Notes: a model not told the origin generated them from the sequence alone. DNA of 63,287 nucleotides, filler included, from an uncultured Methanosarcinales archaeon (GCA_964472345.1; 6 parts of 6 records of this genome joined end to end with filler, not necessarily neighbours in it), one strand, 5' to 3'. Shown: positions 1,481 to 58,379, numbered from the whole stretch's first letter. Numbers and translations: made by a program.

Positions 1481-4400
1481 AAGTAGCCACCCCAAAAGCT
1501 ACGGAGAACGGCGCCACGGGCAGTAAGTGTACTTGGAGGAGTAAGCCGGTCTTCACTGCCTGCTTTAGGGAAAGGCGCCTCTGGAATCAGAGGAAGAAAG
1601 CCGCTTGGCCCGACCCCGCTGCTGGCATTCGCCTGTAACGTGCGGTTGCTGTCGCCCCAGTCATTGTTGCTCACATTATTTGCCTGTGTGCAATAGACAT
1701 TCCAGAGATAGGTGGTGTTCTGGAGGGTGATGGTGAAGTTATGCGTTCCATTTGCAATCAGCGCACTCGTCTTGTTGAGCGCCCAAGTGTTGCTGAAATT
1801 ACCGTAGAGGCTGCAGTTGGCGGTGCTTGGCCCCGCAACTGAGTAATTGAAGTGGACAGAGCTGGTCGTCCGGTTGGCAAGGTTTGCAGGCGCAAGCAGC
1901 GTCACGTTGGTCTGGTTGGAGGTAGAGGTAGAGGAAGTATTCGACACCGTAACGTTGACAAGGATGGTCGTGAAGTTCACCGCATTGTTCCAGTCGACAT
2001 CATAGCAGGTAACTTCGACCGCATAGTGCTGCACGCTCAGGTTGCTGGTGCTGACGATGTAAGAATGGCTGACGCCTCCGGTGACAAGGCCTGTGGAGCC
2101 GAAGCCCCAGGAATAACTTGCGCCTTCAGTCCGGCTCCGGTAGTTCGCATCAACGACTTCAAGGTAATAGCCGGGGCCGCCGAAGAGGGTATTGTTGCAG
2201 GCACCCGGGTTCACGACAGTCGCATTCATACAGCGCGAAGCGTTGAAGGTGTTATAGTTCATCATCTGGAGGCGGCAGTTCGAGGCCTCGGTAGTCGTCC
2301 AGTTCGCGTCGAAGGTGCTCGAATTGGCCGTCGCGTTCAGCTGCGGAGCGAGGATCGTAATCTTCGGTGGTGTCGTGTCCCGGATGGTGACGACACCACC
2401 GGTGATGGTTGCCGTACCGTTCACTCCGCTCACCGTCGCCCGGAGGTACATCGTGCCACGCGTCCAGTTGCCGGTGGGTGGCTGGATGGTAAAGATAGCG
2501 CTTCCGGTGAGCTGCAGAGCTGACGTGTTAATGAGCGAATAGGTGCTGGAAGTATATTGCCTGCAGCTGTCGCTCCAGCAGTTATTCGATGAGAGGGCAT
2601 ACTCTACACCAGTCACATTCACTGTGGTGGTCGTGCTGCTGTTCGTGTCCCGCACATTCAGCCGGATGGTTATGTTTTCGTCGAGGGCAAACGCTGATTT
2701 GAAGCTCCCGCTGGTGTTGACATTATCCCACCAGCCAGTGTAGACTGCAATGCCATTGAAGTTGAAGCCGCTCCAGTCGGTGATGCGTGTCGCGGCGCTG
2801 CTCGGCGAGCTCCATTCGCTCTGGAGATAGTTGTACCCCACTTTCCAGCCGCTGGGTGGGGTGTAGATGGTGAGATTCTGCGTACCATTGACCGTACAGC
2901 TGCGGACGCCGGAGGTGCGTGTATCACATCCCCCGACGGAGAAATTATACTCCTCGAGGATGCTACGCCATGAGTCAAACCTCCACTGGTAGACCTTGCT
3001 GAGGTTGCCCGTAGTTGCGGCACCACTCGTTGCTTTCGTCACGTTCGCTGGCAGGATCACGTTCACAGATGTGAGCACATTGCTCCCTCCGATGATGCCC
3101 CCCCACTTTATTTGGAAGGGTATGGTTTGGAATGATAGCCAGCCATCATCGGAGTTCCCAACCGAATCGCGGACCTGGACAGCCAGATAGTGATAGTTCC
3201 CCCAGCTTCCGACCGGCCACGTGCTGCCTGAGGGGCAGATGGTGACGCTTGTGTTCCCTAAGAAAGTGCCCGAAGGAGTGAAGTTAGTGTACGTGCGCAG
3301 GGTGCTGCCGCTGCTGCTGTAGACGCGCTCCGTGACGCCCGAGATGTTGTAGGTGCCATTCAGCACAGTGTTAACCCGCCAGTCAGGCTCGTAGATGCTC
3401 AGGGTGCCATTGACGCAAGCATCGTCATCGATGGTATATTGGCGTATCTGGATATCGACACGGAACGGTCGGACCTGGAACCACAGCCAGGCGGTTGCCG
3501 TTTCGTTCTGCAGGTTCCCGAGAGTGAGCTCGCCCCAGTAATAGCCGCTGCTCCAGCTCCCGTTCGGCGTGAGGTTGATGGTTCGCGTGCCGTTGATCAC
3601 GCTCCCTCCGCCGAGGATGGTGAGGTTATAGTCGGTAGGATGCCGGAGCTCGACCGTGCGCTGTGTCACCGGGTCCCACCGGCGCAGGACAGAGCTGTCA
3701 ACGGTCACATTCAGGTAATCGGACGTGTTATAGCCTGACGCAAAGTAACCCCCTTTCTGTGTCTTGGTAGCGGTGACATAAAAGTACATGGACTCGTTGT
3801 TCTTGATGCTGTATTTCCAGTTGGTCCCGTTGATGTCGGTCGGGCGCGCTTCAACGTAGAAGGCGACAGTGTTAAACCACCCGCGCCCCGTTTCACTCCC
3901 GTTGACATCGAGGAGGACCTGCCAGTAGCCGGTGTTCCAGCTCGTCGTTCCGGGAGTGAGATTAATGTTCAGCAGATAGGAGGTGTTGGCGCCGCTCCAG
4001 TACCAGCCACTCGATCGCACAACAGTAATGCTTGTAGCATTGTACTTAGAGGCGTTGTAGTCTGAGCACGGCCACTTGCTACAGTCCTGGACTTTCTTCA
4101 CGCTGATAGTCACATTGCTGCCAAGATCCTGCCCAGTCTGACCCCACTGGCCCGCGTTGTTGATAGTGACATAAAGGGTGATGTTGTTCTTCGCGTTGAT
4201 GTTGTAGGTCGAGGAGCACGAGGTCCCGATGCACTCGACGGGCGAGGCGTAGACCTCCCACCGCTTCACGCCGAACCACGCATAGCCATAGTCGACATTA
4301 CCACCATTGTCAATCCCCTTGAGCACTGCTCGATAGTAGCCGGTATCCCAGACGCCGCCAGGCGCATTGGCAGCTGGTAAGGAGATCGTCCCTCTGCCAT

Positions 4401-6866
4401 TGGTAACCTGAGAGGTATTGACAAGGGAAACATTGTATGGATACGCAATCGGGGGCCATATCCACTCGCCATCGCGCCCCTGATACTCGATTTTCTCGAC
4501 GCTGACCGTGCCCGACAGGCCCCCGCTGCCGATACTCCCCCACCAGTTGTTCCCAGCCTCGTACATATATATAGTAAGTGTGATGTTGGTGGTCGGCCTG
4601 TTCTGGTAGGTGGTGCTGTAGGCATAGAGATAAAATGAGCGCGCCTCAAATGCCGTGTGAGCCAGATCCGATGTCTGGCCATCAGCGCTGACCACCCCCA
4701 ATGTCACGCCATAGCCGCCACCATCCCAGTTGCCGACCGGCGTGATAGTGCAGGTATATCCCCCATTGTTGTCATCGACCTGGCAGAATGTTTCACTGCT
4801 GTTCAGCGTGAAGACCTTACCGGTCAGNNNNNNNNNNTAGTGATTGTCGCGTTGTTCACCACCTGCTGTGTTTGGGTGTCAACCGAGCAGGCAGAGCGCA
4901 GCCCGTACTGCGAGGTTGCATTTGATTCCGTCGTGTTGAATGAGGCTGCCCTCCCAAGGGGATTGTCAGCCTGTGTGACTTTCAATTCGAGGTAAATGAC
5001 ATCGCTCGTCTTGAACTGGAAGATGTAGTAGGACTGCCCGCTGGTGACCTGCCCGGCAGTGCTCTTTGGGACAACACAGACATCATAAGGATTGATGATA
5101 AAGCGCGTTGAGGTTGCTGCCGTCCCGTTCTGCCCGGTGAGGTGGACAGTGTAAACGCCGCCGGCCTTCGGTGTATCGAGCTTGATGCGCTGCAGCGTGC
5201 TGTTCCAGGCCCATTCCAGCGCGCTATTCGATGTGTTGACTAGCTCGAATGTTGCCTGCTCAGTGTAGTTGGACTCTGTTCCGTTCATAAAAACAACGGA
5301 GACGACGCCAGCGCTGCTGAGATTGATGGTGTCAGTCGCGTTTTTCGCGCTGAGGCTGAGGTAGACAAACTCATTGGTTCCGAAGAGCTCCTTCAGCGAG
5401 CCATCTTTATCGGTCGACTGCGCGAACATCGAGGCAGTGACAACACGTACCCTTCTCCGAAAATGCTGGGCATCATTGTTATGCGAAACGATGACCGAAA
5501 CTGAGTAGTCGCCGGCAGTCATCGGCAGGGTAAGATTAAACTGGTAGCAGCCGCTGCGGCATGTCGCATTGAACGTCGCGTTCGCCACGCTAAGCTGATT
5601 ATTGAACGAGTCAGTAAGGGAGATATTGATCGAGCTTATATTGATGTCCCGCGCCGCCGAGCCATTTGCGCGCCACATGGGGAGGATGTCGTACCAGGTT
5701 AGGCTCCCCGGATATGCACTGTATTCGTACGCAAAACCGGAGCCGGTTGCGCGCTTTTCAAAGTAGAGATTCCAGCTCCGGACCTGGAAGGAGGTGGTCG
5801 ACCGCACGATGCCGCCGGCGCTCCTAGTGACATTGACGTAAACCGCATAGGTCCCTGCGGGGAAATGTACACCATCGAGCGTCGTGGTGAAGCGGTTCGT
5901 GAATGAGTTGCTGGAGTTGAGCGTCGTAGAGGTGATATTCAGCACCACTGTGTTGACGCTGTTCCTCACCACACCGTCGAACGTGTAAACATCGCTCTGG
6001 TTGCTCGTAACGGCTCCTACCTCGATCGACGCCTGCTCTCCCTCATCGAAGATGTGCTTGATAGCGGTGCCGAACTCGTCCTTCATCTCAAGGTTTATGG
6101 TGAACGGAACGACCTCAAAAGTGCTGAACGCTTTGAAGTTTTCCAGCTCGAGATAGTAGGAGCCAACGCTACTTGGTGCAGTCGTTGCCACCGTGCACTT
6201 GCCTGTACTGCCGGTCGTGCAGTTGAACGAGCTCAGGATTGTCTTGTCCACATCGCGGATCGTGCCATTGGAAGAGATGTTCTCAACATAGACTATGCGG
6301 TCGCCCACGTCACGGAGGGCTTCAATAAGGATGATGAGCGGTGCTCCTGCGTTGTAGACCAGCTTGTCCGAGCTGAGGAACAGGCGATCGACTGTCTGGT
6401 TGACAACGTGGACCTCGACCTGCGTGAACCAGGTGACATTCGCCGGGTCAGTATAGTTTGCACGTAGGTAATAATCGCCAACTGTTGCAGGAGCGGAGAT
6501 CAGCGGCGCGGTGGAGAAAAAGTCGCTCCGCGAATAGAACTGCCCAGTTGAGGAGGTGTTCAGCGCATTTGAAGATGCAAGATTTCCGGTTGTTTTGTTG
6601 ATAAGAGAGATGTTGACCGTTGCGTTAAAGACAGGAGTGCGGTTTGTGATAATGCTCCCATTGCTGCTGTAATTCGAAAGGGTGAGCGTGCCCTGCAGCT
6701 CGATCCGTTCGTTGGTGGTATAAATTGTCTGGGAAGTGACGAAGCTCAGATCTGCGACGTAGGTTTCCGCAAGCGCCACAGCGGTGAGGACGATACTGGC
6801 CAGCAGGCCGAGGCTAATGAGGATACCCCCTCGCCGTTCCAGCCAACTACGAACCCCATCTGCCAT
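1477..6866 (-). CDS. Giant (~1800 aa) secreted glycoprotein with tandem macroglobulin-like/Ig-like domains, interrupted by a 10-N scaffold gap at 4828-4837
   Basis: ORFs 4824..6866 and 1477..4707 are both open up to the gap (LTGKVFTLNSSETFCQVDD... continues upstream of 4707). N-terminal hydrophobic signal, MG2-like motif LFLSSDKLVYNAGAPLII and many N-x-S/T sequons. Confidence 0.7.
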
Positions 6867-6931: not shown

Positions 6932-9900
6932 TCAGCGCCGTCGTGATCGGACACGTTTCCGCTCAATGTGGATGATATAGAGCACGATTGCGAGGATGGC
7001 GACAGCGACGATAACCCAGGTGAATGTTGTGCGATCTGCTTCCGCAGGCAGGAAGAGCTCATCAGTGAGTGGGGGTGTTGCCTCGGGCGATGGTGACGCA
7101 GCCCCGGGCGCCTCGTCGGAAACAGGAGCTGCCTCAGCCGCAGGTTTTGGGGGAGCTTTTGCAGCGACCGCAAACGCGCTGAACCCAGGCGTGCGGGCGG
7201 AATAAATGACATCGAACACGCCGGACCGGACTTTTGTCGTGGGAAGCTCCTGCCAGGCGCCGCTCGTCCAGCGCAGCAGCACGACGGCGTCTTCCGAAAC
7301 GCTGTTGGTGGAGAACCACCTCTGCGGAACAGCAAACTGGATATTGATGTTGGAGACGTCTGCATCGACGAGCTTGCTCTTGGCGATGGAAAGGTGCTTG
7401 TACACCGCCGCATATTGATCCTTCGTGAGTGCAGCAGTCCCCTCTGGCTGCTTGGTGAGCGATGAGACAGTGATTGAGGGCTGCGTAAGCTCACGGAGCG
7501 CCGTGAAACTGATCTGCGTGACAGGGATGAGCGAATTGGTGATGGGATAGCTCGATGCGCCGGGCGGGAGGACATTCCAGGTGTTCGTCGCGCTGGCCTG
7601 AACCGTATCGGCGCCGCCGCTTGCTGCGGTGCCGCCTCCGCCGCCGCCTCCGCTGCCCCCTCCTCCACCAGACGGCGGACTATCTGAGGTCGTCGAAACG
7701 GATTTGTAGGTCGAGAACCCGAGCCCGACAGAGATGGGGATGGTGCAGGTTGTTGTCGTCGAGGTGAACGTGCAGCTTGCGATGCCGGTGACATTCTGGC
7801 AGTTCGTGCCATCATCGTTGCAGTGCTGTACCTGATCGCCTTGGGAGGATGAGGGGATGGTGACGATGACCATGTCGACGCCCGCGCGCTGCAGGAAGCT
7901 CTGGAAGAGGTTTGAATCCATCCCGACGAGGCTCGAGCCGACGACAAAGAGGGAGAGGTTGAGCGTTTGTGCCTCAAAGATGCTGACACCGACGAACATG
8001 ATTGCGGCGGTGCTGTTGGTGGAATTCATGGTGATATTGATGTTGTGGAGCCGGTCGCTCGACGCCCGCAGCGCATAGCTGCTGTTGTAATTGGTGAGGT
8101 TGATTGAGGGGATATCGACAGCCCAGCCGCTCGGGATGTCGAGCCGGAAGGTGATGTTCGAAGCGGAGAGCGAGGTCGTCGCATTGCTGCACGAGCTCAG
8201 GCCGCAGTTGCCGCTCGGATCGCAGACATTGAGCTTGTAGAAGTAAGTCGTATTCCTCACGAGCCCGGTGACATCGACCTCATGGTGGACACGATAGTTG
8301 GTGGATAAGAGGCCGTCGGTGAGCGCTTTGTCTTTGAAGGTCGCATTCAGGCTTGAGCAGGTCGTGTCGTTGTTGTAGAACCTCGCCGTGCCGTTCGACG
8401 GCTCATTCGTGTCGAAGATGATGGTCAGCTCGGTGGGGATCTTCTTGTTGATCTTCGTCCAGACGATGGTGGGGGCGGTGGTGTCGCCTTCGACCGCGCT
8501 GAAGCTGCCAGAGCAGAAGTAGGGGTCATACTTGCAGTCGAAGTCGTTGCAGTCGGTCAGCCCGTCAGCGTCATTGTCCTTGCCGTCTCCGCACGCGGGG
8601 CCGAACTCGCCCGGGAAGAATCCGAACTGGGTGAATGTCGAGCATGAGGAGCTGCTGGAGCCTGAGGTGCTCGTGCAGTCGACCAGTTGCATGTCAATGC
8701 CCTGGAAGTTCGCGGTTCCTGGTCCGATGCGATCAGAGACATTGGAGGCGTTCCCCTGTGCCGAGGCGCTCGTCGCATACGCCCGCCAGGAAGCGCTCGT
8801 GTTGACGTTGGGTTTGCTCGAAAAGCCCTCCTTCCCGATCGCAAACATGGGCCCGTCGACAAAGCTGCAGCTGATGGTCCGATCGACCCGGAAACTGACG
8901 CTCGATGAGACCCACTGTCCGTTCGTGCACTGCTGCGTCAAAAGTGTCTCCGCAAACCTGTTGTCGCTGCTGATCTCCGCAACGTACTTGAACAGGTATT
9001 CGAAGCCGGAGAGGGATGAGTTGTCGAGCGGTGAGCAGCCGCCGGTTGTCGAGCCGTTCGTATCAAGATAGAGATAGTACCGCGAAAGGTTGTTGCCGGC
9101 GCCGATCGACTGCCCTTCATGGAGGGGGACGCCGCCGCACACTGCGGAATAGTTCATGCCCACCGTGGGCATCCCGTACGCAAACGCCTCCGGCGTCTTC
9201 TTCATGCCAAGACCGATGAAATCTAGGTAATCGGCGCCTGACGGCGTCACGTCGCCGCTCGCATCGGCGGCAACGGGGAGCGGCTCATCATGATCGATGC
9301 CTTGGAAGAACGACTGTGAGAATGTGTCATCGCAGAAGCCTGGCGCGGTCAGGACGCGCGTGGCATTTGTCCCGTCGTTGGCGGTCGCGTTTTCCGGAAT
9401 CTGCTCGCTGAGGTTGCCGTTCACGACGACGGTCGAGGTGTTGGTCACGTTCGTGACATTCGCGTTGCCCTCAATGGTGTCAGACCAAGGAGCTATCGGA
9501 AAAGGTACTTCCCAGAGCGCCTCGATGGCCTTTGTCTTGTTGCTGAGATAGTAATGCACGGTCGCCCCGTCGCACGTCGTCGTGTTATAGACATTGCAGC
9601 CCCCCACAGTGCAGGAATCATTCTGGTTTGTTGCAGACCAATTGTACTGGACACGCAGGGTGGTGTTGCAGTAGAGCCGGGTGACATTGAACGCGCGCAC
9701 GGGGGTATTCTCGGTGCCTTTCGCCTGCACAAGCTCAAGGAACGCCCCCGTGCTCCTGTTGAGGAGATAGGAGGACTCATTCTTCGCACCGACGCCAAGG
9801 CCGGTGGGGTGCTGCAGCCCGATCGCAACCCACGTTGCCTGCGGGAAGCGCATATCGCTGAAGCTCACCGAGCCATTGGGATGGTGGAGCGGTCCGTTGA

Positions 9901-11982
9901 AGTCAGTAGACCACCGGCAGTTGCTGTTCGCGCGGCACGCGCTGATGTCCCCGTCGTTCTGGATGCAGCCTCCGATGAAGTTCTTCGATTCGCAGTGCCC
10001 CTCAAACCACACGCAGGTCTGATTGTAGAATGGCGTTGCGTTCCTCGTCGCGTTGTTGCACTGGGTTTGGGCGGTGATGTCGCGGTCGATGCAGGGGCTC
10101 ACGCAATTGTCGGCCCCGAAACCTTCAAAGCCGAAGCCGAACTGGTTGCCCTGCCACCGGCACCCCTCGGCGACGCCCCCGCTCTGGTTGAACTGCAGTG
10201 TCTCGTTGTCTTCGCAGACGACAATGCTCTGCACGTCGCAGAAGCCGAATGGCGACCACTTGCACCCCGCGATGCCATTGCAGTCAGTCGCATTCCTTTT
10301 GGCCCCGCAGTCGCCGAAGAGCGTTTCGTTCTCATGGCAGGTGCCCTCGGCGACATAGGCGCAGACGTTGCCGCCGCCGACGTTCGCGCAGCCCGCAGGA
10401 TCGTTGAAAAGGCTCTCATTGATCCAGCAGAGCTCTGACAGCGGCGCGCAGTAGGAGAAATTGAACACTTCCGTGATCCACGTGCAGCCCGTCGCATTCG
10501 TGCAGTTCCCCTGCGCCTGCGGGATGCCGCCGTAGGTGAACTCATCGTACTGGAAGCAGTTGTTCGTGTCGAAGCCGCCGAAGCCGCCGCAGAACGGATC
10601 CGCCCCGCACTTGAAATCGTCACAGTCGGTATCGCCATTGTTGTCATTGTCGACGCCGTCGAAGCAGATTTCAAACTTCCCCGACTTGGGTTTGCAGAGG
10701 TAAAGGTCGCTGTCCCAGGTGCAGCCGCCCGACGCAGGTGAAGCTGAGCAGCTCGAATTGTCATCGCACTGGAAGCAGTCCTGCTGGCACGTCTTCGCGC
10801 CCGAGCCGAAACAGGAGCGCGTCACATTGTCCCATCGGCAGTCCGCGGTCGAGTTAAGGCAGGACGATTGGGGATTTGGTAGGAGGTTGCAGTCGCCGCA
10901 GAAGCTGTCGCAGCTGAAGCCTCCGCCTCCGAACGTCGACTTACACCACCCGAACCCGTTGAATGCGTTGGTGTCATTTTGGTAAAAGCAGCCCGCGGGG
11001 GAGTTCTCGCACTGCTGCCGGAAAATGGTTGAGTTCGGCCATCTCCCGCCCGTTGAGTTGAACTCGCACGCAAAGCAGTTGCGGCTGCAGTCGCTTAAGC
11101 TGCCGGTGCTGCCGCGGAAATCGCCGCCGCCTCCTCCGACTTCGGAGAACGTCCTGATGGGGCCGCCGAACTCACACCAGCTCTGGGTGCTGAGCGAGTT
11201 CGAAAGCGGGTCAAACGCCGTCTCAGAGCGCCAGATGCCTCCCATGACCTGGCAGGTTGACTCGCTGCTGATGTCCTCAAAATCCTCAAACTGCCCAAAA
11301 TCAAATGCGCCGGCGGAGCAGCGCCCCGTGCTTTCATTCCACGTGCAGGGCATGAAGAACTGCTGGATGAGGATGTTGCAGTTGCTCTGATTGGTGACAT
11401 AGCCTGGCGCTTCACAGCTGAAAACCGGAGGCAAGGCGACATTGCCAGAGGTCTTCGACCTGTTGATGAGGCAGACGGCATTGCTGCTGTTCCATGTGCA
11501 GAGCCCCGTTTTCTGGGTGGATGACTGGTTGGTGCAGAACGAATGGTTCAGGATGGCGCTGCAGTTGAATCCGTCCTGATGGTTGAGGAGCGGCCCAGGG
11601 GTGCAGAGTCCTTGAGCGCCCTGCGACACGTTCCAGGTGCAGTAGCTGCTGTTGAGCAGATCGCACGCATAGCGCGGCAGCAGCTCGCAGTCCGCAGGCG
11701 GAAAATCGGAGTTGTACTCACCCTCATCCTCCTCGATGCAGAGGCCTGATTCACTCCAATGGCACCTGTTCTCGTAATCCTGGACACAGGCAGAGAGATT
11801 GGTGTTGTTCGCGCAGGCGCCGAGCGCCCCGAAGGTGTTGTTGCCGTGCAGGTGACCGACAGACTGGTTGTTGAAGAAGAAAGCGAACGTCGCATTAGGC
11901 GTCGTGTTGCTGCTGAGGAAGACGGAGCGGACAAAAACAGCCCCATAGAACACGTGGCCGCTCCCGTTCAGGAAGCGCACGC
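6932..11982 (-). CDS. Large Cys-rich surface protein with Asp-rich metal-binding motifs, an FN3-like domain, PGF-pre-PGF and a TM anchor (5' truncated by contig end)
   Basis: Repeated C..C.W...C modules; EICFDGVDNDNNGDTDCDDFKC and CGDGKDNDADGLTDCNDFDC; HHEVDVTGLVRNTTYFYKLNVCDPSGN (FN3-like); TPGFSAFAV; TM plus RKRVRSRRR. Confidence 0.8.
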
Positions 11983-12082
11983 NNNNNNNNNNNNNNNNNN
12001 NNNNNNNNNNNNNNNNNNNNNNNNNNTTAATTAATTAANNNNNNNNNNNNNNNNNNNNNNNNNNNNNNNNNNNNNNNNNNNN
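11983..12082. other. Artificial contig linker (N44-TTAATTAATTAA-N44)
   Basis: Six-frame stop spacer flanked by Ns; identical linkers at 23860-23959, 35561-35660, 46699-46798 and 57067-57166. Confidence 0.97.
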
Positions 12083-23859: not shown

Positions 23860-23959
23860 NNNNNNNNNNNNNNNNNNNNNNNNNNNNNNNNNNNNNNNNN
23901 NNNTTAATTAATTAANNNNNNNNNNNNNNNNNNNNNNNNNNNNNNNNNNNNNNNNNNNN

Positions 23960-35485: not shown

Positions 35486-35660
35486 CTCCGTGACGCGGGA
35501 AGGCGATGCTCATTTTTAAATATTGCGGCGGTTTGTGCGGCGATCCCTTTTTGATGTGGGNNNNNNNNNNNNNNNNNNNNNNNNNNNNNNNNNNNNNNNN
35601 NNNNTTAATTAATTAANNNNNNNNNNNNNNNNNNNNNNNNNNNNNNNNNNNNNNNNNNNN

Positions 35661-39665: not shown

Positions 39666-39749
39666 TACGGCAGCCGGGACTTCCGTTCGCATTTCGAACC
39701 CGGGTCTCCACCTTGGGAGGGTGGGGTCTTACCGCTGGACCACTGCCGT
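39666..39749 (-). tRNA. tRNA-Gly(CCC) with a 13-nt T-loop intron at 59/60 (intron 39680-39692)
   Basis: CCACC-CTCCCAA-GGTGG anticodon arm; CCGGG TTCG AA/A TGCGAA CGGA AG/T CCCGG forms a BHB whose splicing gives TTCGAAT; TATA 25-31 nt upstream. Confidence 0.88.
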
Positions 39750-39773
39750 ATGAAACAGTGGAAAAGGGCGCGC

Positions 39774-39780
39774 TTTAAAT
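39774..39780 (-). promoter_or_regulatory. TATA box of tRNA-Gly(CCC), representative of the tRNA promoters
   Basis: AT-rich boxes 25-32 nt upstream of each tRNA 5' end (about 36738, 39774, 39989, 41447, 41990, 42395) in a GC-rich background. Confidence 0.6.
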
Positions 39781-39804
39781 ACCTTATGAGAGGGAAAGAG
39801 AATA

Positions 39805-39964
39805 TGCCGCGGCCGGGAAAGCCACGCCGCCGCGCTGCTCGGCAGCGATTTGAACCCGGGTCGAAGCCTTTCCCTGCAGTGCACGAAAGGGCTTCATGAT
39901 TCTCCGGCGGACGCGTTCCGCGCTCACTGGCGGCACGCTCCTGTCCGGACTACACCACCGCGGC
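39805..39964 (-). tRNA. tRNA-Glu(TTC) with three introns: D-loop (39902-39942), 37/38 (39870-39883) and 59/60 (39819-39848)
   Basis: Removing 41+14+30 nt at BHB-like motifs yields a 75-nt archaeal tRNA-Glu GCCGCGGTGGTGTAGTCCGGACAATCATGAAGCCCTTTCGAGGCTTCGACCCGGGTTCAAATCCCGGCCGCGGCA. Confidence 0.88.
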
Positions 39965-40042
39965 ACGCGAGCCCCGTTTTGCGCTGGCTATAAAAACATT
40001 TCTAAAACCAACCTTTAAAAGAAACGTCCCGTTCACCTCCCC

Positions 40043-40657
40043 GTGGACGACCTGCACCTATGGCTCAATGGGCGCTATCGCGATGCGGAGAAACTTCGCC
40101 CCCGCTTCGCAACGGCAAGGCCATTTCCCCACATCGTCCTGCGCGGCTTCTTTCAGGAAGAAAAGATAAGCCCGATTGAACGCGCCCTGCGCCGGCAGTT
40201 GTTCACCCGAACCGCAGCAGACCTCTACCAGTTCTCCCGCACGCCTGACTTCCAGCGCCTCAGCGACCGCGCGCTCAGGACGTTCCATTCCTTCTTCCGC
40301 TCGCCTGCGTTCATCAACTATATCGGCACCATGACTGCTGCCTCATTAAGCGGCACGATCGACATGGCAGGCTTCCTCTACCAGGACACCGACTACCTGC
40401 TGCCGCACGACGACCGGCTGCACGGCCGCGCCGTCGCGTACATCCTCAACCTCTCGAAAGGCTTCGCAAAAAAAGACGGCGGCCAGCTGCAGCTCCTCGC
40501 GGCGAAAAACAACAGGCCGTCGCGCGCCGTCAAAACAATCGCTCCGCTGCGCAACACGCTGACGCTCTTCAAGGTCACGCCGCGCTCGTTCCACCAGGTT
40601 GCGGAAGTGCTCAGCAGAAAAAAACGCTTTTCCATCGCGGGGTGGTTCCATGGCTAA
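40043..40657 (+). CDS. 2OG-Fe(II) oxygenase, OGFOD1/Tpa1-like catalytic domain
   Basis: PFPHIV..F, DLYQF, TIDMAG, YLLPHDD (HxD), AYILNL, GGQLQL, SFHQVAEV (distal His), RFSIAGWFHG (RxS). Confidence 0.88.
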   Translation: MDDLHLWLNGRYRDAEKLRPRFATARPFPHIVLRGFFQEEKISPIERALRRQLFTRTAADLYQFSRTPDFQRLSDRALRTFHSFFRSPAFINYIGTMTAASLSGTIDMAGFLYQDTDYLLPHDDRLHGRAVAYILNLSKGFAKKDGGQLQLLAAKNNRPSRAVKTIAPLRNTLTLFKVTPRSFHQVAEVLSRKKRFSIAGWFHG

Positions 40658-41291
40658 ATGGGGGGGTATCCATCCGGCGTATCTCCAGCTGCAGACGCTG
40701 CGGCGCGCTGCATCAGCCTATCATAACAACCATCCGCACAGCATCCAGCTGACGCAGTTTCTCCTGCCACAAGCCTGCCGTGCGCTGCTTCTTGCTGCGA
40801 AGGGCGCGCGCTGGAAGCGCCACGAGCAGTACGGGCAGGCGCGCTTCGCAACCGCTGCTCTTCCCCCACCTCTCCGGCAGTTTCTTGCGGGCGAACCGCT
40901 TCAAGCGCTGCTGCATGCGATCACGGGCAGGCAGCCTGGAACTGCACGGCTCTTCGCCTTCCGCCACCGCGATTACACATTGCTCAGCGACGGTGTACGC
41001 CAGCCGGCAGGCACCCTCTTCCAGCTCGAGCTTACGCCGCGCTGGCAGGCCGCATGGGGCGGATTCACCAGCTTTGTCGCGAATGGCCGTGAGCCGCTGC
41101 GCATCACTCCCATGCCCAACAGCCTCGTGCTTGCCGAGCAGCAGGCAGGGGTGCAGCAGTTTGTGAAGTATGTGAATCATCACGCAGGCATCACTCCACG
41201 GATCATGGTGCAGGGCGCTCTCCATGGCGATCACAAGCCCCGCTTCAGGCCGGATGAGCCGGAATTTCTTGCCTCTGCAGCGGTGGAATGA
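40650..41291 (+). CDS. OGFOD1/Tpa1/Ofd1 C-terminal-domain-like protein (non-catalytic DSBH)
   Basis: IHPAYL, SIQLTQFL, DYTLLSD, WQAAWGGFTSFVA, PMPNSLVL, FVKYVNH; ATG overlaps the upstream stop (ATGGCTAA) and follows GGGGTGG. Confidence 0.75.
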   Translation: MAKWGGIHPAYLQLQTLRRAASAYHNNHPHSIQLTQFLLPQACRALLLAAKGARWKRHEQYGQARFATAALPPPLRQFLAGEPLQALLHAITGRQPGTARLFAFRHRDYTLLSDGVRQPAGTLFQLELTPRWQAAWGGFTSFVANGREPLRITPMPNSLVLAEQQAGVQQFVKYVNHHAGITPRIMVQGALHGDHKPRFRPDEPEFLASAAVE

Positions 41292-41297
41292 TAAGAA

Positions 41298-41424
41298 TGG
41301 GCCCGGGCAGACTCTCATGCGTTGGCATCCACCGCCGCTTTTGAACTGCCGACCACCTGCTGACTTCGTGCGAGGAGCGTCGCCCTATAAGACAGGCGCT
41401 CCAACCAGGCTAAGCTACGGGCCC
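41298..41424 (-). tRNA. tRNA-Ile(TAT) with two introns: 37/38 (41362-41385) and 59/60 (41312-41339)
   Basis: GGGCCCG acceptor, GCTTAGCCTGGTTGGAGC D-arm, CCTGT-CTTATA/A-GCAGG anticodon arm; mature length 75 nt; TATA upstream. Confidence 0.87.
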
Positions 41425-41870
41425 GCAATGCAGCGAAAGCCGCGCGTTATTTAAACGTTGCTTCTTTCCGGTGCAGTCAAGCGAGGTGCCAAGCGTGAGC
41501 CGCCACCGTCAGTACAAGCAGCGCCGGAGCCGCAGGCGGAGGCGCGACGGCCGCGAGCTTCGGGCCGGCGCAGGAAGCGGCTCAAGCGGCGTGAGCGCAG
41601 CCGGGGAAGGTGTATTGGTTGCGCGGGACGCGCCTTGGCATTCCACCATCCGGATCCCCGCGGAAAGCTTTAAATAGAAGCAGAGCTGAGCTTGCAGCGG
41701 AGGGGTGTTGGTACGCAGCATCTCGCATACCGCGCTCGCTCACCAGAACGGGTGGGTGTTCCACCGGGAGGGATTGGCATGAAACAACACATTCGGTATG
41801 GGGATGGCGGCGACGACGAAGATTGGGACGAGTAATCAACTCATCATTTTTCTTTTTTCTTGGCAAACGA

Positions 41871-41964
41871 TGCGGCTGCCGGGGATCGAACCCGGGTCAC
41901 AACCTTTTTTCACGGGGTTTTTCCCGCATGGCAAGGTCGTATTCTACCACTAAACCACAGCCGC
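41871..41964 (-). tRNA. tRNA-Gly(GCC) with a 23-nt canonical 37/38 intron (41906-41928)
   Basis: GCGGCTG acceptor, CGACC-TTGCCA/A-GGTTG, intron hairpin GCGGG/CCCGT, GGTTCGATCCC. Confidence 0.92.
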
Positions 41965-42010
41965 GCTCCACCAGCAGTTTTGCAGATAGTTTTTAAATAT
42001 ATCCTGCATG

Positions 42011-42145
42011 GGGCGCCATTGAAAAGTTCCCGTTCGCTACGCTCGACCTGATTGTCCTTCGGACTCGAGTCGAGCTAGAGCCTGGCAGGCATCCTGCTCA
42101 CGCCAGCGCTCACTGGCCGCCTTGGCGAACTTTTCAATAACGCCC
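42011..42145. mobile_element. MITE-like element, type C (copy 1)
   Basis: TIR GGGCGCCATTGAAAAGTTC / GAACTTTTCAATAACGCCC flanked by a TGCATG direct repeat; second copy at 56962-57066. Confidence 0.75.
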
Positions 42146-42218
42146 TGCATGGGCCCTTCGTGCCCGCAAGCTGCCTGATGAGTTTGACGCTGCAAGGTTC
42201 CGCTGCCCTTGCAGCTCA

Positions 42219-42370
42219 TGGGCCCGACCAGACTTTCACTCCCGTTCAGTCCCGTTCAGCGGAGCTGAAGAGATTCGAACTGGTGGCCTTCTCCGCTCGT
42301 CGCTGTGCGCTGCTTCTGCATCCCGCAGCAGCATGTAAGGGAGACGTCATAGCCGCTAGACCACGGGCCC
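42219..42370 (-). tRNA. tRNA-Val(TAC) with two introns: 37/38 (42296-42333) and 59/60 (42233-42273)
   Basis: GGGCCCG acceptor, TCTCC-CTTACA/C-GGAGA, ACCAG TTCG AA/T...TGAA AG/T CTGGT; mature length 73 nt; TTTATAAAA upstream. Confidence 0.86.
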
Positions 42371-46698: not shown

Positions 46699-46982
46699 NN
46701 NNNNNNNNNNNNNNNNNNNNNNNNNNNNNNNNNNNNNNNNNNTTAATTAATTAANNNNNNNNNNNNNNNNNNNNNNNNNNNNNNNNNNNNNNNNNNNNCA
46801 GGAGGCAGGCGGAAGGCGGCCAGCATGCACCCCTCCTTGCCGCACTGTACCGCTCGGCATTTCTTGGGCTTTACGCGTGGGACAAATTCTTTGACTGGGG
46901 GTTTTTTCCCAGTCTCCGCGAGGAGTTCCTTTCTTATCGGGTTCCGCATTTCGATGCGACGGTGCTCAAAATCAGGACATCG

Positions 46983-57066: not shown

Positions 57067-57166
57067 NNNNNNNNNNNNNNNNNNNNNNNNNNNNNNNNNN
57101 NNNNNNNNNNTTAATTAATTAANNNNNNNNNNNNNNNNNNNNNNNNNNNNNNNNNNNNNNNNNNNN

Positions 57167-57695: not shown

Positions 57696-58379
57696 ATGGT
57701 AGGCAAACTTATTGTGATTGAAGGCTCGGACAGCAGCGGGAAGGCGACGCAGGCAGAGCTGCTGATCAGGAGGCTTACGCAGCACCATGTTCCCGCGGAG
57801 AAGGCTGACTTCCCGCAGTACGGGAGCTGGTCGGCTTTTTTTATCGAAAAGTACCTGAACGGCGAATTCGGCAGCTCGGGAGAAGTGAACGCACAGCAGG
57901 CGTCACTGTTCTACGCGCTTGACCGGTTTGCCGCGAAGAAGCGCATCCTGCAATGGCTGAATGAAGGGAAGGCCGTTGTCGCGAACCGCTATGTGGGCAG
58001 CAACCAGGCGTACCAGGGGGCGAAGATACAAAATGAAGATGAGCGAAAGAAATTTCTCGCGTGGCTCGATGAGCTTGAGCACGGCATCCTCGGGCTGCCC
58101 CGTCCTGACCTGGTTATCTACCTGCGCGTTCCACTTGCGGTGAGCCTGCAGCTGCTTGAGCGAAGACGCAAGAAGGATTATATCAGCGACGGCACGAAAG
58201 ACCTCCATGAGCGCGACGAGGCGCTGCTGCAAGCGACCGGGGAGGTTTATGAGCATCTCGCACGGCGGGAGGAGCGCTGGCGCGCCATTGACTGCACCGA
58301 AGACGGGGTGCTGCTTCCGAAGGAAAAAATCCACGAAAAGGTGTGGAAGGANNNNNNNNNNAGCCGAAAAACTCATTGA
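57696..58379 (+). CDS. tmk: Thymidylate kinase (3' end interrupted by a 10-N gap)
   Basis: LIVIEGSDSSGKATQ, LFYALDR, NRYVGSNQAYQG, LPRPDLVIYL, DLHE. Confidence 0.9.
   Translation: MVGKLIVIEGSDSSGKATQAELLIRRLTQHHVPAEKADFPQYGSWSAFFIEKYLNGEFGSSGEVNAQQASLFYALDRFAAKKRILQWLNEGKAVVANRYVGSNQAYQGAKIQNEDERKKFLAWLDELEHGILGLPRPDLVIYLRVPLAVSLQLLERRRKKDYISDGTKDLHERDEALLQATGEVYEHLARREERWRAIDCTEDGVLLPKEKIHEKVWKXXXXSRKTH

Follow-up and report, generated by a model that had tools for sequence, protein, structure and literature searches.

Five interrupted tRNA genes in one cluster

The window, by which we mean the whole stretch of 63,287 bases analysed here, consists of contigs C40, C41, C42, C44, C45, and C66 of one archaeal assembly (G000; 1.26 Mb, 120 contigs, 57% G+C, completeness estimate of 100%) joined with N spacers; adjacency across the gaps (N runs at 4828-4837, 11983-12082, 23860-23959, 35561-35660, 46699-46798, 57067-57166, and 58352-58361) is meaningless. 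Contig C44 (C44 coordinate = window coordinate minus 35,660) carries the subject of this work, a cluster of five tRNA genes on the minus strand, each interrupted by at least one intron and four of them by an intron in the T loop, between nucleotides 59 and 60. Four DNA sequencing runs of a single groundwater study contain 78-88% of the sampled words of the stretch. We take the host to be a DPANN archaeon of the Woesearchaeota/Nanoarchaeota group, because the closest relatives of its tRNA splicing endonuclease (EndA) carry the source names Candidatus Woesearchaeota or Nanoarchaeota archaeon.

Introns were located with our own script, which lists bulge-helix-bulge candidates (a 4-bp central helix together with an outer and an inner helix, each 3-nt bulge being cut behind its second base), excises combinations of them, and fits a standard cloverleaf to the remainder. 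The initial annotation of this DNA had counted nine introns in five tRNAs, four of them (13, 30, 28, and 41 nt) at the same 59/60 site; the script and the cloverleaf fit returned the same nine, arranged as follows.

39666-39749, minus strand: tRNA-Gly(CCC), one intron; cloverleaf fitted, spliced product called Gly(ccc) by ARAGORN
39680-39692, minus strand: Gly(CCC) 59/60 intron, 13 nt, bulge-helix-loop without inner helix, AG before T60
39805-39964, minus strand: tRNA-Glu(UUC), three introns
39902-39942, minus strand: Glu(UUC) D-loop intron, 41 nt, 3' of G18G19, central helix with the D-loop CCGG
39870-39883, minus strand: Glu(UUC) canonical 37/38 intron, 14 nt
39819-39848, minus strand: Glu(UUC) 59/60 intron, 30 nt, 8-bp inner hairpin, ends in TT
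41298-41424, minus strand: tRNA-Ile(UAU), two introns
41362-41385, minus strand: Ile(UAU) canonical 37/38 intron, 24 nt, one central-helix mismatch
41312-41339, minus strand: Ile(UAU) 59/60 intron, 28 nt, TTCA/TGAG paired 4/4, AG before T60
41871-41964, minus strand: tRNA-Gly(GCC), single intron, T loop uninterrupted
41906-41928, minus strand: Gly(GCC) canonical 37/38 intron, 23 nt, one central-helix mismatch
42219-42370, minus strand: tRNA-Val(UAC), two introns
42296-42333, minus strand: Val(UAC) 37/38 intron, 38 nt, poor motif, 2/4 central pairs
42233-42273, minus strand: Val(UAC) 59/60 intron, 41 nt, full bulge-helix-bulge with 5-bp inner helix, central helix 4/4, AG end

In the four 59/60 introns of the cluster, the outer helix is the 5-bp T stem, and the central helix joins T54-R57 to the four intron bases just upstream of the final two. 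The use of TTCR as the central helix, the AG/T ending of three of the four introns, and the mismatches in several central helices were all part of the initial annotation and were reproduced: T54-R57 pairs at 4/4, 3/4, 4/4, and 4/4 positions in Gly(CCC), Glu, Ile, and Val, respectively (T54 opposes C in Glu, the intron that ends in TT), and the 37/38 introns of Gly(GCC), Ile, and Val contain one, one, and two mismatches. In Gly(CCC), both the central helix (TTCG/CGGA, 4/4) and the T stem (5/5) are present in the RNAfold minimum-energy fold. A TATA-like A/T-rich box, read by eye, lies about 25-35 nt upstream of each gene of the cluster.

These genes are largely invisible to standard searches. 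ARAGORN run without introns and Rfam at its gathering score together report just two tRNAs window-wide, Leu(CAG) and Gly(GCC); unspliced Gly(CCC) is missed by both, and unspliced Val(UAC) reaches 26.2 bits against the Rfam tRNA model, under the 29-bit cut-off.

Genome-wide census of tRNA introns

A census of the 1.26 Mb genome, which located T-arm anchors and acceptor pairing and then sought splicing solutions, gave 43 tRNA genes for 19 amino acids with a total of 72 introns; six of these genes (Val(CAC), Val(GAC), Ser(GGA), initiator Met, Leu(CAA), and Leu(UAA)) were curated by hand. The canonical 37/38 position holds 34 introns and 59/60 holds 27, with 11 elsewhere (nine in the D loop, one at about 9/10, and one at 53/54); 27 of the 38 non-canonical introns therefore sit at 59/60. 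Three genes are uninterrupted, thirteen carry a single intron, 22 carry two, and five carry three. When spliced in silico, all 43 products were called by ARAGORN as tRNAs with the expected anticodon; unspliced, just 12 of 43 pass the Rfam tRNA model. Ordinary tRNA finders overlook most of the tRNA genes of this genome because T-loop introns interrupt over half of them. For nearly every anticodon the interrupted gene is the sole copy, the exception being the two CAU genes (initiator and elongator). Two additional ARAGORN calls were rejected, Ala(tgc) on C36 as a false positive in a coding-like region and Phe(gaa) on C68 as a misreading of the Asn(GUU) gene.

Most of the introns have relaxed motifs, as the initial annotation had suggested from the cluster: among all 72, just 11 are strict, 38 have no inner helix, and 5 are poor. 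The D loop is a second hot spot, with introns in nine genes just 3' of G18G19 (e.g., window 39902-39942). There, the exon strand of the central helix comes from the conserved YYGG around G18G19, so that this hot spot, too, coincides with a conserved part of the exon; the outer helix has just 0-2 bp and is weak, and strong inner hairpins are common. Two introns fall at other sites. The His(GUG) gene on C26 (reverse-strand index 10527-10638) has the sole T-arm intron away from 59/60, a 24-nt insert called at 53/54, whose exact position is ambiguous because it is flanked by a 5-nt direct repeat, GAGTT. In the Leu(UAA) gene on C38 (reverse-strand index 3981-4110), a 31-nt insert at about 9/10 separates position 9 from the D stem; its bulge-helix-bulge motif is unconvincing (2/4 central pairs) and its boundaries are uncertain.

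Anatomy of the 59/60 introns

The 59/60 introns, present in 27 of the 43 genes, are 12-48 nt long. The first base of the 3' exon is T60 in 27/27, bases 58-59 are AA in 24/27, the pairing tetranucleotide within the intron is mostly TGAA, TGAG, TGAC, or CGAA, and the last two intron bases are AG (11/27) or AA (7/27). By motif class, the 27 divide into 5 strict introns, 8 with a single central-helix mismatch (in most cases at T54), and 14 of the bulge-helix-loop type, in which the outer helix, central helix, and 3' bulge are intact and the 5' cut falls in a loop. In RNAfold predictions for the T arm plus intron, the T stem is retained in 26/27. Eight introns with 5-8-bp inner hairpins, in which RNAfold leaves the central helix open, form exact 7x7 internal loops; these dimensions equal the 4+3 / 3+4 spacing of the motif and so support the bulge-helix-bulge anatomy.

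Distribution in relatives and covariation of the central helix

Relatives were searched with a pattern consisting of a CCSGG T stem, TTCRA, an insert, YGR plus three bases, T60, and the matching stem; the reversed pattern served as a control. Matches were obtained in 20 of the 31 genomes of the relatives set (control, 0) and in 102 of 251 sampled phylum genomes at least 90% complete (control, 1). The nearly empty control, together with the tRNA calls for all 43 genes once spliced, marks the arrangement as something other than chance. By group, the pattern occurs in 97/188 genomes of the same order (the genome under study and its family included) and in 5/63 from other orders of the class; these counts are lower bounds, since the pattern sees only one T stem type, accounting for 5/27 of the 59/60 introns of G000. 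When 30 pattern loci were fitted, 29 proved to be tRNA genes (Asp, Pro, Gly, Ala, Val, Glu, and Ser) interrupted at 59/60; the other, L024, lies at a contig end and did not resolve. One unpublished genome, G008, counts in the 31-genome tallies and in two of the loci used for resolution and for the covariation below, and two more, G258 and G259, count in the 251-genome tally; leaving out all three shifts each count by one or two, and the conclusions are unchanged.

A stricter census was run on G024, a closed 1.30 Mb genome from another family of the order (36% G+C). In this census, 29 of 30 spliced products were called as tRNAs by ARAGORN; the unconfirmed call and a duplicate Cys were dropped, leaving 28, and four loci called only by plain ARAGORN were added to give 32. 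A 59/60 intron is present in 15 of these 32 loci, with lengths of 19-100 nt. Both genomes carry one in Ile-UAU, Glu-UUC, Asp, Pro-UGG, Val-GAC, Arg-UCU, Arg-UCG, and Arg-CCU; Val-UAC, Lys-UUU, and Phe are interrupted in G000 but not G024, and Gln-UUG, Trp, Ile-GAU, and Leu-UAA in G024 but not G000. This partial overlap of the interrupted sets points to repeated gain or loss at one site between families. The lineage-wide recurrence at 59/60 that the initial annotation had proposed from four genes thus holds for 27/43 genes here, for 15/32 loci in G024, and for 97/188 genomes of the order. At the fixed position, orthologous introns vary in length; that of Asp(GUC) is 48 nt in G000 and 17-40 nt in seven other genomes. 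Some 59/60 introns of G024 (contig C1, Trp(CCA) and Arg(CCU)) are 96-100 nt, which leaves room for a small RNA or a mini-ORF (open reading frame).

The number of tRNAs that pass the Rfam model ranges from 9 to 42 per genome among 31 order genomes of similar completeness, and low counts are found mostly where the 59/60 pattern matches. G028, with 10 Rfam tRNAs and no match to the 59/60 pattern, is an exception in which other kinds of disruption may dominate.

The introns of these genomes were also used to look for covariation between position 57 and its partner in the central helix. In counts pooled from G000, 27 relatives' loci (either pyrimidine allowed), and the 15 loci of G024, G57 faces C in 26 and T in 7, and A57 faces C in none and T in 34. 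The corresponding Fisher p value of 1.6e-12 overstates the support because the genomes share ancestry and because a limit of one mismatch had been applied to two of the three sets; in the unfiltered set alone, A57 faces T in 12 and C in 0, and G57 faces C in 11 and T in 4. By this evidence the precursor helix is under selection. A second shared trait is AG directly before U60, which ends 11/27 of the introns in G000, 13/27 of the relatives' loci, and 13/15 in G024.

Near-identical introns in unrelated tRNA genes

The intron bodies of the cluster had been described initially as unrelated, and among themselves they are: no two of the four 59/60 introns form a pair among the 20 best intron pairs of the genome (shuffled-intron maximum score, 28). 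Two of them, those of Val and Glu, have near-identical copies on other contigs. The 41-nt 59/60 intron of Val(UAC) is identical at 39/41 positions to that of elongator Met(CAU) on C3 and at 34/41 to that of Arg(UCU) on C49, and the respective tRNA bodies agree at 41/74 and 48/75; the 37/38 introns in these same Val(UAC), Met(CAU), and Arg(UCU) genes are unrelated (8/38 and 10/38). Within amino acid families, Val(CAC) and Val(GAC) have a common 35-nt 59/60 intron (33/35 identical), and Glu(CUC) on contig C6 shares a 30-nt 59/60 intron with Glu(UUC) (29/30 identical). Arg(GCG) and Ser(UGA) have common ends and a common hairpin, with 27/41 positions identical and a borderline score. Intron-pair scores were 72, 63, 55, 47, and 38, compared with the shuffled-intron maximum given above.

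Because the Val and Met introns are far more alike than the tRNA bodies around them, these comparisons indicate that 59/60 introns have spread between unrelated tRNA genes. With near-identical introns across amino acid families and less similar bodies, the Val/Met/Arg family shows what in Thermoproteales has been called intron transposition (PMC4090602). No other of 201 sampled order genomes gave a match to this family, save one 23-nt match at E = 0.006, and a search of G000 for intron copies outside tRNA genes found none, save a contig-edge fragment on C88; we conclude that the copying was recent and local. Possible routes of DNA copying are reverse splicing followed by reverse transcription, or recombination between T arms. 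Contig C88 begins within a copy of the Val(CAC)/Val(GAC) 59/60 intron (C88:1-29; 28-29 nt, 100% identical), which could represent another Val-like gene or else a variant of the assembly, truncated at the contig end.

Splicing endonuclease and ligase

Profiles PF01974 and PF02778 each match a single gene of contig C2 (locus L001 253-786, minus strand), and the Sen15 profile finds that same gene. The encoded EndA is 177 aa long, with one N and one C domain (PF01974 at 98 bits; PF02778 also matched). Searches with PF01974, PF02778, and Sen15 at E values up to 10 gave no second EndA-like gene, and neither did phmmer or a 120-sequence profile when run over 10,506 six-frame ORFs. Among proteins of solved structure, EndA best matches the N. 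equitans catalytic subunit (E = 1.8e-38) and the alpha4 enzyme of M. jannaschii (E = 1.7e-34); its residues 7-177 are colinear with residues 3-171 of M. jannaschii 1A79, and the Y, H, and K motifs of the two coincide. A search with this EndA also picks up the N. equitans beta subunit (E = 1.8e-13), so that a similar beta subunit would have been seen. Compared with N. equitans alpha, EndA has six residues fewer just before the catalytic His, where the NEQ-specific/L3 loop lies (PMC3488258). The crenarchaeal loop (CSL), an insertion of 10-12 residues in S. tokodaii and P. aerophilum alpha, is absent as well. EndA aligns to one unit of 4FZ2 at a time, and its length of just 177 aa excludes the epsilon2 form.

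The initial annotation had expected an (alpha-beta)2 or epsilon2 enzyme on account of the relaxed motifs. This was not borne out: judged from its sequence, the sole EndA is of the alpha type and neither (alpha-beta)2 nor epsilon2, it has neither the crenarchaeal nor the N. equitans/ARMAN-2 loop insertions, and it is presumably a homotetramer. Among the relatives, 29 of the 31 genomes have an EndA match, single in all (the closed G024 among them) but G008, where a contig edge bears a second, partial match. When 21 EndAs from the order are aligned, there is no indel and the catalytic region is invariant, whether the Rfam model passes 9 or 42 tRNAs in the genome concerned.

In the reviews consulted, only (alpha-beta)2 and epsilon2 enzymes are described as removing relaxed motifs efficiently (PMC6379350), to which alpha4 enzymes with an L3 loop in DPANN archaea have been added as a broad-specificity type (Kaneta 2018, PMC5829648); loop-less enzymes are described as strict or constrained (PMC5829648, PMC6379350). 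The predicted EndA fits none of the described broad-specificity types, and the predicted intron substrates of G000 argue against a strict specificity.

The ligase RtcB is also encoded (PF01139, 478 bits). It lies in one 994-aa frame on C6:6347-9169, where Pfam matches it in two pieces (profile 1-55 at 6347-6520, profile 49-426 at 7997-9169); RtcB probably carries an intein of roughly 490 aa.

Interpretation of the inserts

We consider it very likely that the inserts between nucleotides 59 and 60 are true tRNA introns of the archaeal endonuclease type. The precursor would have the T stem as its outer helix and a 4-bp central helix in which T54-R57 is paired with a YGRN tetranucleotide close to the 3' end of the intron; the last two intron bases and U60 would make up the 3' bulge, and A58, N59, and the first intron base would make up the 5' bulge (a loop in short introns). 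The lone alpha-type EndA would then cut at both sites, and RtcB would ligate the exons. On this scheme, an insert would need just pyrimidine-G-purine-N plus two 3' bases to present a cleavable 3' bulge between two helices. On our reading, the site recurs since every tRNA offers nearly the same exon half of the motif (T stem, T-Psi-C-R, and A58), so that a short sequence ending in YGAA plus two bases should be spliceable from any tRNA at 59/60. The near constancy of the exon side would also be why one intron works in Val, Met, and Arg tRNAs with at most a wobble change, and intron bodies could drift freely because just the 3' tetranucleotide and two bases are needed. Introns have moved among unrelated tRNA genes at 59/60, with many gains and losses of the site across the order.

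Several points weigh against this reading. Genes for Tyr, Ala(UGC), and Leu(UAG) were not found in the census; a scan for missing tRNAs with relaxed anchors, in which 1,071 of 17,146 candidates were processed, gave none that was real, and neither did a second scan of 570 candidates. The census detects introns through bulge-helix-bulge geometry, so the share of inserts that bear the motif is partly circular and the number of motif-less inserts lies beyond its reach; a genome of this kind is expected to have roughly 46 tRNA genes, and with 43 of these recovered, at most a few motif-less cases can be hidden. Only 5/27 of the 59/60 introns are strict and 14 have no inner helix, and the central helix is part of the RNAfold minimum-energy fold for just 9/27. 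All eight sequencing runs listed, including the four that contain the stretch, are DNA, and removal of the inserts is something that we infer. Finally, the sole EndA looks like the alpha4 class, and the reviews credit efficient removal of relaxed motifs to (alpha-beta)2 and epsilon2 enzymes only. The initial annotation had named a genome with only a strict-specificity EndA, incapable of cutting these motifs, as the case that would speak against splicing; in its predicted architecture the enzyme formally answers to that description, and the comparative evidence for removal is still strong. With a strict-looking EndA on one side and such evidence on the other, we regard the mismatch as a puzzle about the enzyme and not as evidence against splicing.

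That the inserts are retained, either as tolerated T-loop expansions in mature tRNAs or as features of pseudogenes or assembly artefacts, would suit the DNA-only runs and the resemblance of the EndA to the strict-specificity class. We hold this to be extremely improbable. The interrupted genes are the only copies for nearly every anticodon (the CAU pair excepted), insert lengths of 12-100 nt vary freely among orthologues, and the covariation of position 57 with its partner means selection on a precursor helix that would be purposeless in a mature tRNA; in addition, a like architecture is seen in about 100 independently assembled genomes, and the stretch itself is in four DNA runs, of one study. 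If the inserts are removed, it might be by more than the alpha EndA, with a diverged structural subunit or an unrelated nuclease adding the broad specificity. Such a factor would make sense of 38/72 introns with no inner helix and 5 with poor motifs in the presence of an enzyme of the loop-less kind that is described as strict or constrained (PMC5829648, PMC6379350), but PF01974, PF02778, Sen15 (E up to 10), phmmer, and the 120-sequence profile all lead to the one gene, a beta subunit like that of N. equitans would have come to light at the E value quoted above, and a single gene is likewise found in 28 of the 30 other genomes of the relatives set, the closed one included (G008 with its second partial edge match). 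We therefore rate an additional cleavage factor as quite unlikely.

Two other explanations concern why the introns persist at 59/60. The initial annotation had suggested that they protect the 3' halves of tRNA genes from integrases, a shield hypothesis that is already published (Randau and Soll, via PMC4090602): by breaking the T-arm/3'-end sites used by viral or plasmid integrases, the introns would be maintained by selection. The geometry is suitable, as a 59/60 intron leaves a contiguous 3' exon of just 14 nt (positions 60-73). We nevertheless think it unlikely that this is the cause, as we found a single tyrosine recombinase gene and no partial tRNA copies resembling att sites (8 short matches of 15-20 nt, E = 0.006-0.027), the same tRNA is interrupted or not depending on the family, and selfish or neutral spread would account equally well for a near-identical intron being present in three unrelated tRNAs; the recombinase and att outcome itself fits protection, scarcity of such elements, or a fragmentary assembly equally well. 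A role in maturation, with introns sequestering T54-A58 to time T-loop modification or folding or else encoding guide RNAs, has precedents in the intron-dependent modification and the intron-borne guide RNA of Haloferax tRNA-Trp (PMC4090602), and the conservation of AG before U60 would agree with it. We consider such a role very unlikely, given that intron bodies are unconserved between genomes outside the pairing tetranucleotide, that the presence of an intron in a given tRNA differs among families, and that Rfam finds nothing inside the introns. Splicing by the EndA pathway, with introns that spread and are lost at a conserved exon site, remains the reading that we prefer.

Comparison with known systems

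Earlier publications already cover the 59/60 position, genes with several introns, relaxed motifs, transposition, and the shield hypothesis (PMC4090602, PMC6379350); the introns described here are thus of a known kind at a known position, and what is new is the lineage and the scale. In Crenarchaeota/Thermoproteales, introns beyond 37/38, including 59/60, are listed with up to three per gene (PMC4090602), and very similar introns across isoacceptor families have been read as transposition (Sugahara 2008 and Fujishima 2010, via PMC4090602). G000 resembles the Thermoproteales in its non-canonical positions, its up to three introns per gene, and its sharing of introns between families, and it differs from them in belonging to a DPANN lineage, in the dominance of 59/60 (27/38 non-canonical introns), and in having a single alpha EndA without the crenarchaeal loop.

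Within DPANN archaea, ARMAN-2 (Ca. Micrarchaeum) has a T-loop intron in pre-tRNA-Cys and an epsilon2 EndA of 395 residues in which K161 of the ASL loop gives specificity (PMC3488258). The relaxed-motif T-loop intron that needs a broad-specificity endonuclease is common to both; unlike the three-unit EndA of ARMAN-2, the enzyme here has 177 aa, and we found no protein of epsilon2 length or bearing the ASL in the genome. Kaneta 2018 linked the L3-loop alpha4 EndAs of DPANN archaea to increased tRNA gene disruption and took incomplete DPANN tRNA sets to point to hidden disrupted genes (PMC5829648). An alpha4-type enzyme together with many disrupted tRNA genes is what we see as well, but the six loop residues of the L3-loop enzymes are absent and the length of that segment is invariant in 21 order genomes. 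The text consulted in PMC5829648 gives no intron positions for Woesearchaeota, and we found no description of T-loop introns in Woesearchaeota in the open literature searched.

A recent preprint on some Asgard archaea reports that most of their tRNA genes are interrupted, with the called introns concentrated at 37/38 and in the T arm and the missed ones in the D arm; it concludes that gains were repeated and that there is no general route of copying between tRNAs (bioRxiv 10.64898/2026.10.13.758758). The archaea considered here are of a different phylum, and in G000, unlike the Asgard case, one intron family is 39/41 identical between Val and Met genes.

Other features of the locus

Between the Glu and Ile genes of the cluster are two overlapping ORFs, at 40043-40657 and 40599-41291 on the plus strand, that together resemble an Ofd1/Tpa1-like 2OG-Fe(II) oxygenase; ORF 1 matches 2OG-FeII_Oxy_4 (98.6 bits) and ORF 2 matches Ofd1_CTDD (37.4 bits). 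The split could be a frameshift, a sequencing error, or genuine. An S-adenosylmethionine (SAM) synthetase gene comes after the tRNA cluster. Neither the oxygenase ORFs nor the synthetase gene belongs to the intron finding. A GC-rich 200-nt gap at 41462-41660 was checked for structured RNA and gave a z-score of 0.82 and no Rfam match.

The Ile(UAU) gene of the cluster is present beside an Ile(GAU) gene in the genome, as is also the case in G024, and the CAU genes found are limited to an initiator-like and an elongator-like one; AUA may therefore be read without a modified CAU tRNA.

Implications

The finding should interest specialists for its scale, for its consequences for annotation, and for the mismatch between the substrates and the type of enzyme. 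Counts of tRNA genes are commonly used to grade metagenome-assembled genomes, and they underpin claims that DPANN archaea have a reduced translation machinery; for this order, grading or conclusions of reduced translation drawn from tRNA counts would be wrong. The accepted tie of relaxed motifs to (alpha-beta)2, epsilon2, or loop-bearing enzymes appears to fail here as far as the protein sequence tells, and an EndA of 177 aa makes the source of broad specificity directly testable. How endonuclease-type introns arrive was left open by the Asgard study (bioRxiv 10.64898/2026.10.13.758758). With one exon site that is conserved, frequent gain and loss there between families, and a 41-nt intron copied recently among three unrelated tRNAs, the order would offer a clean system for that question.

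Beyond the identity of the inserts as introns, we put forward a more specific proposal, which at present we see as evenly balanced between right and wrong: that the woesearchaeal alpha-type EndA cuts bulge-helix-loop and mismatched motifs with none of CSL/L1, ASL/L2, or NEQ/L3, the insertions to which broad specificity has been ascribed up to now, and that the T stem and T-Psi-C-R act as a universal landing pad. If this is true, there would be a further, unrecognised route to broad EndA specificity, extending over motifs in the T, D, and anticodon loops, and a landing pad for short hopping introns would explain why the T loops of this order are filled with them.

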